Sequence record: PP925821.1
DNA from: Escherichia phage Eeyore
Strand: one strand, 5' to 3'
Length of the DNA: 45,057 nt
Part shown: positions 1 to 45,057 of the stretch, piece after piece
How the letters are laid out: each line of letters begins with the position of its first letter
Numbering within the stretch: the first letter of the stretch is position 1
Translations under genes and position numbers: made by a program
Notes under the pieces: generated by a model
The model's database searches: none
What the model was told of the DNA's origin: nothing
What the model saw: the letters and a program-made list of their open reading frames with translations, nothing else

Positions 1-687
1 ATGGGGAAAGGGGACTTCACTTTTTACGCGGGGAAATACGTTTTTATCGGCGATAGCTTTGAGTTTCGCAACCCCATTACCTGTCAAAATAGCATCAGCG
101 CATCTGCAAAAATAGCGACCACTGCTGATATGGAATGCAAAACTAAAATCGCTGTTTTGGCACCGGCTGACAATCAAAATGCCCATGTATGGTTCTATGG
201 CACAGGTGGGGCATCCAGGGGGGTTATTTATTCCGGGCAAACAGGAATTATTCAGATCCGTCCCGACAATAATGATAACGGCGGCTCCAACGGATACTCT
301 TTTGCATTTGGGGCCGATGGTAAGTTTACCTGCGTCACGATGAACCAGACCTCAGATGAGCGAGTAAAATTCGATAAAGAGCCCGTCAGTAACGCTCTGG
401 AGAAGATTTGTTCCCTGACGGGTTATACGTTCGGCATTCAGCTCACAGAATCTGAGTCGGTACGTAGCGCAGGCATCATCGCACAGGAACTGGAGCAGGT
501 TCTGCCGATCGCTGTGAGTTCTGGCGGCACCGGAACAACACCTGCAGGAGAGGAAATTAACGATCTCAAAACCGTGGACTACAGCGCAATGAGCGCCCTC
601 TACGTTGAGGCAATCAAGGAATTAACCAACCGGTTGAAAAGTGTTGAGAGCGAACTTACTGCAATACGTGACCGCTCAAACGCTTAG
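1..687 (+). CDS. Tail-fibre alternative C-terminal cassette 2 (3' part), with peptidase-S74-type intramolecular chaperone domain; 5' part appears to be 44902..45057
   Basis: Frame-1 ORF from position 1. Motifs TSDERVKFD...GYTFGIQ...GIIAQELEQVLP...VDYSAMSALYVEAIKEL match the autoproteolytic chaperone domain of tail fibres/endosialidases. Stop TAG 685-687 overlaps the stop of the convergent cassette (TTAG). Confidence 0.6.
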   Translation: MGKGDFTFYAGKYVFIGDSFEFRNPITCQNSISASAKIATTADMECKTKIAVLAPADNQNAHVWFYGTGGASRGVIYSGQTGIIQIRPDNNDNGGSNGYSFAFGADGKFTCVTMNQTSDERVKFDKEPVSNALEKICSLTGYTFGIQLTESESVRSAGIIAQELEQVLPIAVSSGGTGTTPAGEEINDLKTVDYSAMSALYVEAIKELTNRLKSVESELTAIRDRSNA

Positions 688-1337
688 TTTCTTGTCTTAT
701 CTTCTAAAGCCCCGACGCGGATTGCCAGGGCTTTTATCGCGGCCAGCGCATCGAGCAACATGGGGGTCTGGTCGAGATGCAGCAGGCCGCCAATATCTTT
801 GACGTATTCAGGGTCGATAGTTTCAATCTGCTGAGATATCACCCCGCGCCGTGGGGTCTGCGTTTCATCATCCTTAAAAGTGAAGTGTTTGAACTCCATC
901 CGTGAAATGTTGCCCAGCGCCTCTTCTGGATCGAGGTCGTCACCAATATTTTTCATAATTCTGTCTGAAACTGCAGACGTCATTATCTCCTTCCATGGGC
1001 TCCATGTATCAGTGTTGTAACCCCTGAAAAAAAACCTTCCCGCATCAGTTTTGTTGGCATACGGCAAGCAGAACTGCGTCAAGGCTACATCAGGAATACG
1101 AACATAATTTTGAACATACCCATACCAGCTGGTGATAGGTCCTGAAGTTGATTTCGCCATATCTAACAGCAAACGATATGTACCAGGTTCAGTCAGGGCA
1201 TTGAAATTTGTCCCGTCAGGAGCAACTGCCATATCTGTTTTAAAGGCTCTGGCATCACCAGTTGGCAACCCGAATGCCCCCACCTGCATGACGTTCCCGG
1301 CTGCGCCGCCTGCATCCAGCGTGGCGCTACTTCCCAA
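684..1337 (-). CDS. Tail-fibre alternative C-terminal cassette 3 (inverted, promoterless), S74-like chaperone domain
   Basis: ORF begins at TTG; the open frame continues to 1349 through the gix-like site, encoding IKVGLGSSAT, the same junction peptide as the other cassettes. C-terminal VSDRIMKNIG...GVISQQIETIDPEYV...LLDALAAIKAL resembles S74 chaperone domains. Confidence 0.5.
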   Translation of the reverse strand: MGSSATLDAGGAAGNVMQVGAFGLPTGDARAFKTDMAVAPDGTNFNALTEPGTYRLLLDMAKSTSGPITSWYGYVQNYVRIPDVALTQFCLPYANKTDAGRFFFRGYNTDTWSPWKEIMTSAVSDRIMKNIGDDLDPEEALGNISRMEFKHFTFKDDETQTPRRGVISQQIETIDPEYVKDIGGLLHLDQTPMLLDALAAIKALAIRVGALEDKTRN

Positions 1338-1354
1338 ACCGACCTTTATTCACC
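1321..1354 (-). repeat. gix/hix-like recombination site C (inverted orientation)
   Basis: Reverse complement ggtgaataaaggtcggtttgggaagtagcgccac; first 23 nt identical to 44897..44919. Core tcggttt resembles the Mu gix core AAACCTCGGTTTA. Confidence 0.6.
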
Positions 1355-2083
1355 TTCATCCGTAGTCATTGCCAGTTCTGTGGCCCTGAGTTTTTGGTTG
1401 TACAAAGAATCGGCAGGCATCTCGACACGGACGGACAAAAACTGGTCATGGGGGATATCGACCGGATCGCCATTGTTGATACCCAGCAGTTCGTTCCTGG
1501 CGAACGCTGGCGCGTCAGGATACGTGCGGTGAAAGGTTTTCACCAGCACCGAGCCGTCAGCGTTAACCTCATAATCCAGCCAGATCAGCGGCTGCTTGTT
1601 ACGGTCTGTAGGAATGTCAAAACCGCCATCGATTCCGCCCCAGGCTGCGTCAGAGTTCAACCCTTCACACCCTTCGATAAGATACTGCCCTACGTCCAGA
1701 CGGATGACCTTTATGCCTTCGGATTCATCATTGGTTTGGTATGCACCATCCGAAAATACTTTCACCACAGGCGATGCTGCTTTCAGTGTGCCATCGCTGG
1801 CCCTCGTGGTATTGCCCGTGGTGTAAGCCTCCTGATATGACCAGGACGTGCCACCGTAATACGAAAACCACGTCCGCCTTAGAATGTAGGCCTGATGAAT
1901 ACGGGTTGGTCGGCTGCCCCGATTGACGACTATAGACGTAATACCGGTATTTGCAGTTAACCCGAGCTGGGTCTGTCCGTCATTTTGATGGGAGGAGAAA
2001 CAGGTCGGTGTAAATGCGTCCATAGCGTCCAACAGTGGGCCGTCTCCGTTGATAGTTCCAAGCCCAAATGCGCCCACTTGCAT
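1346..2083 (-). CDS. Tail-fibre alternative C-terminal cassette 4 (inverted, promoterless); paralogue of the expressed cassette 1
   Basis: C-terminal ~140 aa (ASPVVKVF...GQYLIEGCEGLN...KQPLIWLDYEVNADGSVLVKT...DEGE) near-identical to the C-terminus of 43619..44905; N-terminal ~100 aa divergent. Open frame extends to 2140 through site D, encoding NVGLGSSAT. Confidence 0.6.
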   Translation of the reverse strand: MQVGAFGLGTINGDGPLLDAMDAFTPTCFSSHQNDGQTQLGLTANTGITSIVVNRGSRPTRIHQAYILRRTWFSYYGGTSWSYQEAYTTGNTTRASDGTLKAASPVVKVFSDGAYQTNDESEGIKVIRLDVGQYLIEGCEGLNSDAAWGGIDGGFDIPTDRNKQPLIWLDYEVNADGSVLVKTFHRTYPDAPAFARNELLGINNGDPVDIPHDQFLSVRVEMPADSLYNQKLRATELAMTTDEGE

Positions 2084-2116
2084 GATGTTCCCGGCAGTCG
2101 TTCCGACGTCCTTTGT

Positions 2117-43561: not shown

Positions 43562-43596
43562 CGATCAATTTTACATGATTGATCGTTTCAAACGAT
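43562..43596. promoter_or_regulatory. GATC-containing palindromes in the divergent promoter region
   Basis: Three GATC sites in 35 bp; perfect inverted repeat GATCGTTT-C-AAACGATC (43580..43596) overlapping GATCAAT-N8-ATTGATC (43562..43583). Confidence 0.5.
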
Positions 43597-43618
43597 CGTT
43601 ATTATCGTGAGGTAGTTC

Positions 43619-44905
43619 ATGCTTTATAACACTGGCACTATCGCTATTAACGGAAATACCGCAACCGGCACTGGCACAAACTGGACGGCACCGGCCAGCC
43701 AGGTTCGCGCTGGACAGACGATTATCGTCATGTCTAACCCGGTCCAGATGTTCCAGATTTCATCCGTGAACAGCGCCACATCGATGACGGTTACGCCAGC
43801 TGCTTCCCCGGCGCTGAGCGGCCAGAAGTACGGCATTCTGGTATCAGACAATATCTCGGTCGATGGTCTGGCGCAGGCGATGTCTCAGCTCATCAAAGAG
43901 TATGACGAGAATATCGGTGCGTGGGAGACCTTCGCTACCACATCAGCAAATCAGAGCATTACCGTGACCATCAACGGCACCGCCGTAACCATCCCTGGCA
44001 TCGGGAAACTGGCGCAGAAAGGGAGCAACGGTGCGCTTGCAATCGCTGACGGCGGGACCGGGGCAACGAAGGCAGAAGACGCTCGCACAAACCTCGGTTT
44101 AGGAAGTAGTGCGTTGAAGAATTTGCAAAGCACAACCGAGGACAAAACGTCTGGGGCTGTTTTGCAGGTTGGAGCCTTCGGATTAGGTGCGGAGGCTCCA
44201 ACGATCCCTGCTAATGATGCGAATCAGATTGTTGGCTATAACGGTTTTGTTTCCGGTGCAGGGGCTCCTGGAACGAACTGGGTAAACGTGTACGGTCCCA
44301 TGCTCGTTATGAGGAGAATCAGCGCGGTTGCTCAGGTCCAGGTAAACTCTGTTGGTGGATTGGCATCACGCTACGGTCTGGTTACGGATATGACCGTTAA
44401 CAATGGCGGTGCATGGTGTGTTCACTGGCATGACAGAAACACAACGGTGGACTCAAGCGGGTTCATAAAACGGGCTTCGCCTATCGTTAAGTTGTTTTTT
44501 GATGGAAGCTACGAAACAAATGATGAATCTGAGGGGTGCACAGTACGCCGTATCGAAACAGGCCAATATCTTATAGAAGGATGTCATGGCCTGAATGCTG
44601 AGGCTATTTGGGGCGGGGTTGATGGCGGTTTTGAGATACCCTCAGACCGTAATAAACAGCCGCTGATATGGCTGGATTATGAGGTAAATGCTGACGGATC
44701 GGTGCTGGTAAAAACCTATCACCGCACACACCCGCAAGCGCCAGCGTTCGCCAGGAACGAGCTGCAGGGCATCAACGATGGCGACCCGGTCGACATTCCC
44801 CGCGATCAGTTTGTGTCCGTGCGCGTCGAAATGCCTGGCGATTCTCTGTACAACCAGAAACTCAGAGCCGTAGAGCTGATCCTTGCTGCTGATGAAGGTG
44901 AATAA
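43619..44905 (+). CDS. Side tail-fibre protein, expressed copy (constant N-terminal ~160 aa + cassette 1)
   Basis: 428 aa, SD GAGGT; gix-like site A encodes NLGLGSSA at ~aa 160; C-terminal ~140 aa near-identical to inverted cassette 4 (1346..2083), both ending DEGE-stop followed by a gix-like site. Confidence 0.8.
   Translation: MLYNTGTIAINGNTATGTGTNWTAPASQVRAGQTIIVMSNPVQMFQISSVNSATSMTVTPAASPALSGQKYGILVSDNISVDGLAQAMSQLIKEYDENIGAWETFATTSANQSITVTINGTAVTIPGIGKLAQKGSNGALAIADGGTGATKAEDARTNLGLGSSALKNLQSTTEDKTSGAVLQVGAFGLGAEAPTIPANDANQIVGYNGFVSGAGAPGTNWVNVYGPMLVMRRISAVAQVQVNSVGGLASRYGLVTDMTVNNGGAWCVHWHDRNTTVDSSGFIKRASPIVKLFFDGSYETNDESEGCTVRRIETGQYLIEGCHGLNAEAIWGGVDGGFEIPSDRNKQPLIWLDYEVNADGSVLVKTYHRTHPQAPAFARNELQGINDGDPVDIPRDQFVSVRVEMPGDSLYNQKLRAVELILAADEGE
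44086..44113 (+). repeat. gix/hix-like recombination site A inside the expressed tail-fibre gene
   Basis: cacAAACCTCGGTTTAggaagtagtgcg; 13-nt core identical to the Mu gix core AAACCTCGGTTTA (recalled); inverted counterpart at 2117..2146. Confidence 0.6.
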
Positions 44906-44926
44906 AGGTCGGTTTGGGAGACAGCG
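44900..44926 (+). repeat. gix/hix-like recombination site B, directly after the tail-fibre stop
   Basis: aaaggtcggtttgggagacagcgcc; with flanking bases (44897..44919) it is a perfect 23-nt inverted repeat of 1332..1354. Confidence 0.6.
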
Positions 44927-45057
44927 CCACAGCCAACTTCGGAAGCCTCGAGATCGGAGCCAAAAAACCTTCTTCAGCAAGCTTTGTTGATTTCCATTTT
45001 CTTGGCACCAACGACTATGACGCGCGCATCCTGTGTGGTGGTAATTCTAATGGTGCC
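44902..45057 (+). CDS. Tail-fibre alternative cassette 2, 5' part (promoterless, no start codon; runs off the window end)
   Basis: Frame 1 open from 44902 to the window end, no ATG; begins IKVGLGDSAT, the junction peptide encoded at all four sites; window length 45057 is divisible by 3, so it is in frame with the ORF at position 1. Confidence 0.5.
   Translation, partial: MKVGLGDSATANFGSLEIGAKKPSSASFVDFHFLGTNDYDARILCGGNSNGA

Follow-up and report, generated by a model that had tools for sequence, protein, structure and literature searches.

Escherichia phage Eeyore: a record that very probably holds one complete lambdoid phage genome, opened inside a tail-fibre inversion module

The sequence record PP925821.1 of Escherichia phage Eeyore is a stretch of 45,057 bp, which was analysed at its full length and is called the window in what follows. 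It very probably represents one complete, unit-length genome of a temperate, cos-type lambdoid siphophage, the circle of which was opened at an arbitrary gene-call start within a Gin-type multiple-inversion module. This module consists of the segment that encodes the constant N-terminus of the side tail fibre (stfN), four alternative C-terminal cassettes (c1 to c4), four gix-like crossover sites (A to D) and a serine DNA invertase. BLAST comparisons with phage records placed Eeyore in the phi80/mEp213/mEp043/LLS/Flotzy group of lambdoid siphophages, with nucleotide identities of 96-98% to Flotzy (PP925827) over most of the window and of 92-98% to LLS (PQ299149). That the window is a complete genome had been proposed in an earlier note on this DNA, and the proposal is supported by a seamless join of the two ends, by the presence of single modules, by collinearity with LLS and Flotzy, by an intact attP and by the absence of bacterial DNA.

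The join between the two ends of the record

At the right end of the window, a TGA at 44899-44901 is followed by a frame that remains open from 44902 to 45057. The length of the window is a multiple of three (45057 = 3 × 15019), and position 1 continues this same frame up to a stop codon at 685-687. The joined frame comprises 280 codons and carries a Peptidase_S74 chaperone domain at residues 170-224 (Pfam). The frame and Pfam checks agreed with the earlier note in each of these respects, namely a final frame without a stop, a length divisible by three and an S74-type C-terminus that begins at position 1.

An exact-protein look-up of the invertase led to contig AAROGK010000053.1 of assembly GCA_012072505.1 (hereafter L008), an independent E. 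coli-type draft contig in which the same phage is integrated at the tRNA-Pro gene proL, adjoining yejM. L008 matches positions 44891..45057 of the window and then directly positions 1..1343, with one mismatch (at 692) in 1,510 nt and no indel. Because L008 is contiguous across the step from 45057 to 1, no base is missing or duplicated at the join; no terminal overlap was observed between the window ends. A second contig of the same assembly (L023) is 99.4% identical to window positions 34524-44082. Neither the expressed fibre nor the 228-aa ORF that starts at position 1 gave a match when looked up as an exact protein. Seven complete E. coli chromosomes also contain the joined DNA, at about 88% identity and as one BLAST piece running through the junction. 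Moreover, the predicted fusion of stfN with c2 could be aligned over its full length, at 86% identity, to the fibre of E. coli CX21, which is encoded by one coding sequence (CDS) of 446 aa in the expression position. Comparison of the joined cassette with contiguous homologues, as suggested in the earlier note, thus favoured the join in L008, in the seven chromosomes and in the CX21 fibre.

The same conclusion was reached at the level of the whole genome. When the window is made to start at cos, it can be followed collinearly along LLS and Flotzy from one end to the other, the join included, and the order fibre, dinI, attP and int of the Flotzy record is that of the joined window. PHROG and Pfam scans together with annotation transfer showed that each lambda-type module is present in a single copy, as had been stated before. 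The early and lysis functions found once each were int, an open reading frame (ORF) in the position of xis, a DnaQ-like exonuclease, CI, Cro, CII, an O-like gene, Q, holin, endolysin and spanin. Among the structural functions, the small and large terminase subunits (terS and terL), portal, a protease-capsid fusion, major tail protein, tape measure, J and the side tail fibre were likewise found once each. Neither bacterial genes nor a second copy of any module were seen in the window. According to self-BLAST, the homologies among the tail-fibre cassettes are the sole internal repeats of the window, one being inverted (1321-1777 versus 44474-44930, 78% identity) and another direct (1269-1347 versus 2063-2141).

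At position 1 the open frame of the silent cassette c2 has its first ATG, and the Flotzy record is likewise a rotation that starts exactly at a CDS start. The circular assembly was probably re-opened at the first ATG of c2 by an annotation or re-orientation tool. The opening of the record inside the tail-fibre cassette region, which had been predicted, was confirmed, with the cut falling within c2.

Attachment site, cohesive end and form of the DNA

The 49-bp core of attP, TTTTGGTCGGCACGAGAGGATTTGAACCTCCGACCCCCGACACCCCATG, is located at 3836..3884 on the minus strand and corresponds to the 3′ part of proL. A four-way alignment of attP, attR, attL and attB was made with the attR of E. coli EC2641, the attL of CX21 and K-12 proL. 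In this alignment, window positions 3740-4020 were resolved into three parts: a left arm equal to that of the EC2641 attR, the 49-bp core, which K-12 proL has as well, and a right arm equal to that of the CX21 attL. Integrated relatives split the window at 3836-3884: the segment 2584-3884 adjoins an intact tRNA-Pro and yejM in EC2641 (attR), and the segment 3787-5300 adjoins yejO in the CX strains (attL). Next to attP, a tyrosine integrase with Arm-DNA-bind_1 and Phage_integrase domains is encoded at 4021-5214 on the minus strand; it is 97% identical to the integrases found beside attL at yejO. The ORF at 5211-5504 (minus strand) was assigned to xis by its position alone. Through the integrase, the 49-bp core of attP would recombine with the 3′ end of proL, between yejM/lapC and yejO.

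These data bear on two other explanations of the window, the first of which is a single integrated prophage, either opened at an att site or wrongly delimited by a prophage caller. The presence of int and of only a fragment of a tRNA gene would fit such a prophage. Nevertheless, the tRNA-Pro fragment is limited to 46 nt from the 3′ end and has a phage arm on either side, as in attP, ARAGORN detected no complete tRNA in the window, and int occupies the middle of the window rather than one of its ends. Since attP is intact, the window is not a single integrated prophage. The earlier note had considered attP and int in mid-window to be incompatible with a single prophage opened at att; the four-way alignment bears this out and refutes that explanation, to which we assign practically no probability.

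Tandem lysogens regenerate attP between the copies, as is known from lambda biology. The second explanation therefore supposes two prophages in tandem at proL, with the first 3.8 kb being the right end of copy 1, attP the junction between the copies and the remainder belonging to copy 2. Close relatives do sit integrated at proL, which is in line with such an arrangement. However, the window comprises one unit exactly, its ends join without gap or overlap in L008, and it contains no bacterial flank, attL, attR or second gene copy. A cut of chromosomal DNA would moreover have to match the phase in both copies to the base, which is very improbable, and we regard a tandem origin as extremely unlikely.

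Several observations weigh against the interpretation of the window as a complete phage genome with a Gin-type inversion module. A tandem dilysogen would also yield the attP junction. Exact-match scans with a 46-mer and a 31-mer of the junction and with the first 40 nt of the window gave no match in viral_contigs, genome_contigs or metagenome_contigs, BLAST against phage records found no record matching at 100%, and a search of PLSDB for a plasmid-like record of the phage returned distant relatives only. In addition, the activity of the switch, its dependence on Fis and the receptor specificities of its tips are predictions.

As regards packaging, the putative cosN, with the 12-nt 5′ cohesive end GGGCGGCGCGCT, lies at 22895..22906 on the plus strand and is identical to the cohesive site annotated at positions 1-12 of LLS. 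It is the one such site in the window and lies 106 nt upstream of terS. When one mismatch was allowed, the 12-mer of lambda cos, GGGCGGCGACCT, was not found in the window; the actual cos differs from the lambda 12-mer at two positions and was located by reading the sequence together with the LLS annotation. The cos sequence of Eeyore is also that of LLS and mEp213, for both of which the same cos has been inferred (PMC12315714). The terminase small subunit (23012-23512, plus strand; phrog_141, E 4e-68) and large subunit (23512-25614, plus strand; phrog_15, E 9e-304) follow. On these grounds we infer that position 22895 is the true end of the virion DNA, which would be a linear molecule with 12-nt cohesive ends at 22895 that circularises after injection.

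Permutation of the headful type was rejected, given the presence of cos and of a lambda-type terminase. The term "circularly permuted", which the earlier note had applied to the complete genome, is consequently true of the record and not of the packaged DNA, which is of the cos type; the genome itself stood as complete. In practice, the record should be handled as circular or re-opened at cos (22895); left linear, it breaks c2 into two spurious gene fragments and hides the invertible module.

The tail-fibre inversion module

Read across the join, the module has the layout stfN, site A, c1 (forward), site B, c2 (forward), c3 (reverse), site C, c4 (reverse), site D and invertase. The sites are 26-bp imperfect palindromes around a 2-bp core, and all of them share the sequence TC-GGTTTRGGA. 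The core TCGGTTTRGGA occurs exactly four times in the window, at 44094 and 44909 on the plus strand and at 1342 and 2136 on the minus strand; shuffled sequences gave 0.06, and four copies were reached in 0 of 100 shuffles. The gix-like sites noticed earlier at the two ends of the window are indeed inverted between the ends, although there are two sites per end and not one.

The constant part stfN (43619..44095, plus strand) comprises 159 codons and runs up to the crossover in site A, and the homology of the fibre to many E. coli prophages ends at about 44104. Site A, CTCGCACAAACC-TC-GGTTTAGGAAGT, extends over 44082..44107 on the plus strand with its TC at 44094-44095. Its 13-nt centre is identical to that of gix of phage Mu (TTATCCAAAACC-TC-GGTTTACAGGAA), the matched core being AAACCTCGGTTTA. 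Site B, GGTGAATAAAGG-TC-GGTTTGGGAGAC, is found at 44897..44922 on the plus strand (TC at 44909-44910). Sites C (1329..1354; TC at 1342-1341) and D (2123..2148; TC at 2136-2135) are on the minus strand. The left halves of sites B, C and D are weak (degenerate).

The cassette that is currently expressed, c1 (44096..44905, plus strand), provides a fibre C-terminus of the Phage_tail_C_2 type (PF25670, E 2e-60). The silent cassette c2 consists of a 5′ part at 44911..45057 and a 3′ part at 1..687, both on the plus strand and contiguous in L008, and encodes a Peptidase_S74 intramolecular chaperone (PF13884, E 6e-11 on the joined ORF). The other two cassettes are silent as well and lie on the minus strand: c3 (684..1340) is of the Peptidase_S74 type (PF13884, E 3e-8), and c4 (1346..2134), a paralogue of c1, is of the Phage_tail_C_2 type (PF25670, E 1e-57) and is oriented forward in L008. 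c2 and c3 are convergent, and their stop codons overlap at 684-687 (TTAG, read as TAG on the plus and TAA on the minus strand), with no spacer or terminator between them. The crossover falls within codons for (L/V)-G-L-G at every site, so that any cassette placed beside site A would be fused in frame to the 159-residue N-terminus. The four in-frame fusions, with c1 to c4 in this order, have lengths of 428, 436, 377 and 421 aa.

The invertase gene (2214..2768, plus strand) encodes a protein of 184 aa of the Gin/Cin/Hin/Pin type, called "Fin" in LLS, with a Resolvase (PF00239) and an HTH_7 (PF02796) domain. Residues 2-182 could be aligned to the Gin structure PDB 3UJ3 (E 1e-64) with Ser9 aligned and the YxRVST motif present, and the protein is about 60% identical to Gin and to P1 Cin. 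A Fis-like 15-mer, GAGGATAAAATATCC, is located at nt 94-108 of the gene (2307-2321), and similar motifs occupy the same place in gin of Mu and fin of LLS. The 15-mer overlaps the stretch that encodes the conserved IFEDK motif; it may belong to a recombinational enhancer or be no more than conserved coding sequence. A scan of the 5′ region of the invertase gene revealed no clear second Fis-like site at a spacing of 48 bp.

According to the model that we propose, the invertase would recombine the four gix-like sites through their common TC dinucleotide, with A and B on the plus strand and C and D on the minus strand. The resulting inversions would place any of four tips behind site A, two of them of the Phage_tail_C_2 type and two with a self-cleaving Peptidase_S74 chaperone, and would be expected to produce four alternative receptor specificities among the progeny. 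A breadth-first search over inversions between oppositely oriented sites yielded 12 arrangements, in which each cassette can be brought to expression. As enumerated, expression of c2 needs two successive inversions.

One of these arrangements is present in L008, where c4 (forward), c2 (forward) and c3 (reverse) precede the invertase in what is the same phage at 99.6-100% identity. This order is two inversions away from that of the window. The identity between L008 and the window breaks on the left in a shared 20-nt stretch that holds site B, and on the right at 1343/1344, 1-2 nt off the dinucleotide of site C. Natural isomers that break exactly at the sites indicate that the module recombines. 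Alternative orientations were also encountered in sister isolates of the CX series, a homologous three-cassette module being oriented one way in CX04 and CX15 and the opposite way in CX05, CX07 and CX21; these orientations were compared among isolates, not inside one population. The three-cassette homologue of CX15 and CX21 lies in a different, phi80-like prophage beside yciI/tonB, at about 2.82 Mb.

Invertible regions are heterogeneous in lysates, and one may ask whether assembly from mixed inversion isomers has produced a false join or a false cassette order, so that the arrangement in the record never existed as one molecule. The draft assembly of the same phage does break near the sites, in L023 as well as in L008. 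Against such an artefact, the join is located within c2, at a distance of 147 nt from the closest site, and L008 agrees with it to the base. Besides, the order of the window (c1 and c2 forward, c3 and c4 reverse) is one of the 12 legitimate isomers, with all sites intact, and the length and content of the genome agree with those of LLS and Flotzy. We therefore regard an assembly artefact as very unlikely and retain the interpretation of the window as one genome in a genuine cassette arrangement.

The end of L023 is 12 nt short of site A, and the first base of L008 lies 20 nt within a D-type site; it appears that repeated or heterogeneous crossover sites broke the assembly GCA_012072505.1. In another assembly, GCA_902362215.1 (L019, positions 9096-10563), a related prophage at a different chromosomal site has the same constant fibre part, joined at site A to a cassette of the c4 type (90% identity). 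A short inverted cassette remnant comes next and an invertase is lacking, so that this prophage looks like a frozen isomer. The number of cassettes among relatives ranges from one to four, which suggests growth and shrinkage of the module through gain and loss of cassettes. Within the group, Eeyore has four cassettes and LLS two, whereas Flotzy has a fixed fibre without an invertase.

Programmed inversion of phage tail genes is a well-known class of switch. In the G/Gin system of Mu and the C/Cin system of P1, as in Eeyore, the invertase (about 60% identity) adjoins the invertible DNA, the AAACC-TC-GGTTT core is identical to gix, and the crossover takes place within the fibre gene so that a constant N-terminus receives alternative C-termini. 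Mu and P1 differ in having two sites and two cassettes instead of four of each, and in that theirs is a myovirus fibre whereas that of Eeyore is a siphovirus side fibre. The cassettes of Eeyore are also not accompanied by a separate assembly chaperone gene of the U/U′ type, two of them having a built-in S74 chaperone instead, and three of its four sites are degenerate in the left half, unlike those of Mu and P1. For LLS, the repeats IR-L and IR-R and an "invertase Fin" have been annotated, and a Mu/P1-like switching of tips was suggested by the authors (PMC12315714).

Eeyore resembles shufflons in that many isomers arise through successive inversions. R64-type shufflons depend on a tyrosine recombinase (Rci), whereas Eeyore has a serine invertase. 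The Min system of plasmid p15B, associated with the names of Sandmeier, Iida and Arber, is said to use more than two sites to shuffle fibre C-terminal cassettes behind a constant part, and would reportedly share the formation of many isomers with Eeyore. It differs in having six sites on a P1-related plasmid prophage, compared with four sites in an integrating lambdoid phage.

Taken in this context, Eeyore is an ordinary new member of a known group, and its switch is a four-cassette version of a known kind that does not conflict with current understanding. Only tentatively would we consider it an undescribed, shufflon-like multiple-inversion host-range switch for the side fibres of lambdoid siphophages. 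In that case it would be distinguished by two unrelated tip folds (Phage_tail_C_2 and S74 self-chaperoning), by the lack of a separate chaperone gene and by access to c2 only after two inversions. The module offers a clean and fully delimited four-tip fibre inversion switch in a lambdoid phage, and its base-exact natural isomers could be used for locked host-range variants or for the study of serine invertases with more than two sites.

Remaining gene content and comparison with relatives

LLS, Flotzy, mEp213, mEp043 and phi80 have the same gene order as Eeyore, with 96-98% identity across the head genes, the tail genes and most early genes. The attachment sites differ, Eeyore using the tRNA-Pro gene proL, LLS ssrA and the phi80-like prophage of the CX strains yciI. 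With the LLS class, Eeyore shares the protease-capsid fusion, the cor-like gene described below, a high density of Chi and the lack of any Rec module among the scanned ORFs.

The head and tail module (25823..43165, plus strand; PHROG) encodes portal, the protease-capsid fusion, a decoration protein, major tail protein, the G/GT chaperone, tape measure, M/L/K/I, J (38572-42231, plus strand; PHROG) and two small ORFs. It is collinear with, and 97.7-98.2% identical to, its counterparts in LLS and Flotzy. The G/GT slippery site GGAAAAG is found at 32116-32122, where the frameshift site is annotated in LLS. An ORF of 185 aa between I and J (38049-38606, plus strand) is present in Flotzy and not in LLS, as judged from the aligned regions. 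A gene for a cor-like exclusion lipoprotein of 120 aa (43130..43492, minus strand; phrog_25729) separates the J-distal ORFs from the side fibre gene, and its homologue in E. coli UPEC85 is annotated as cor. By analogy with phi80, this gene hints that J may use FhuA as phi80 does.

The right-end accessory module next to attP (2811..3733, mixed strands) consists of dinI (minus strand, PF06183), a small ORF and a truncated HumD/UmuD-like ORF, and the same genes are found beside attR in prophages. The last of these ORFs (3413-3733, plus strand, 106 aa) matches only the N-terminal half of HumD/UmuD-type proteins (NF051876, partial), and related prophages carry full S24 peptidase and IMS (umuDC-like) genes at this place; it is probably a truncated remnant.

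The region 5465..22809 (mixed strands) contains the early-left genes and those for immunity, replication and lysis, where PHROG and Pfam identified CI (10360-11055, minus strand), Cro, CII, the O-like gene, three DNA methyltransferases, Ant, HNH, Q (18180-18893), holin, endolysin and spanin. The early-left ORFs that were scanned did not include a Rec module, and Chi (GCTGGTGG) is the commonest octamer of the window, with 19 copies on the plus and 4 on the minus strand. The window agrees in this with the LLS class, for which the lack of a Rec module and a high Chi content have been described (PMC12315714). For the small ORFs of no known function, searches of Pfam, NCBIfam and PADLOC gave no match.

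Two inserts of Eeyore are not present in the LLS and Flotzy records, a TGT-like gene (6050-6859) and a low-GC segment (19010-20150). The former is an ORF on the minus strand that matches phrog_887, "queuine tRNA-ribosyltransferase" (E 3e-94), with no match in Pfam, NCBIfam or PADLOC, and may be a DpdA-like DNA-modification gene. The latter forms part of an insert of about 1.1 kb just downstream of Q (18989-20150; GC content about 0.40), which is flanked by inverted terminator-like hairpins at 18989-19010 and 20088-20109 and encodes a 185-aa ORF (19098-19655; phrog_4350, no known function). The corresponding stretch of Flotzy measures only about 55 bp, and the insert looks like a moron cassette. 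Finally, the three DNA methyltransferase genes are located in 13150-16414 and 20317-21369, and encode a Dam-type enzyme with a long C-terminal extension, a 663-aa enzyme of the C5-cytosine type and a 350-aa enzyme upstream of the lysis genes, all three presumably with anti-restriction functions.

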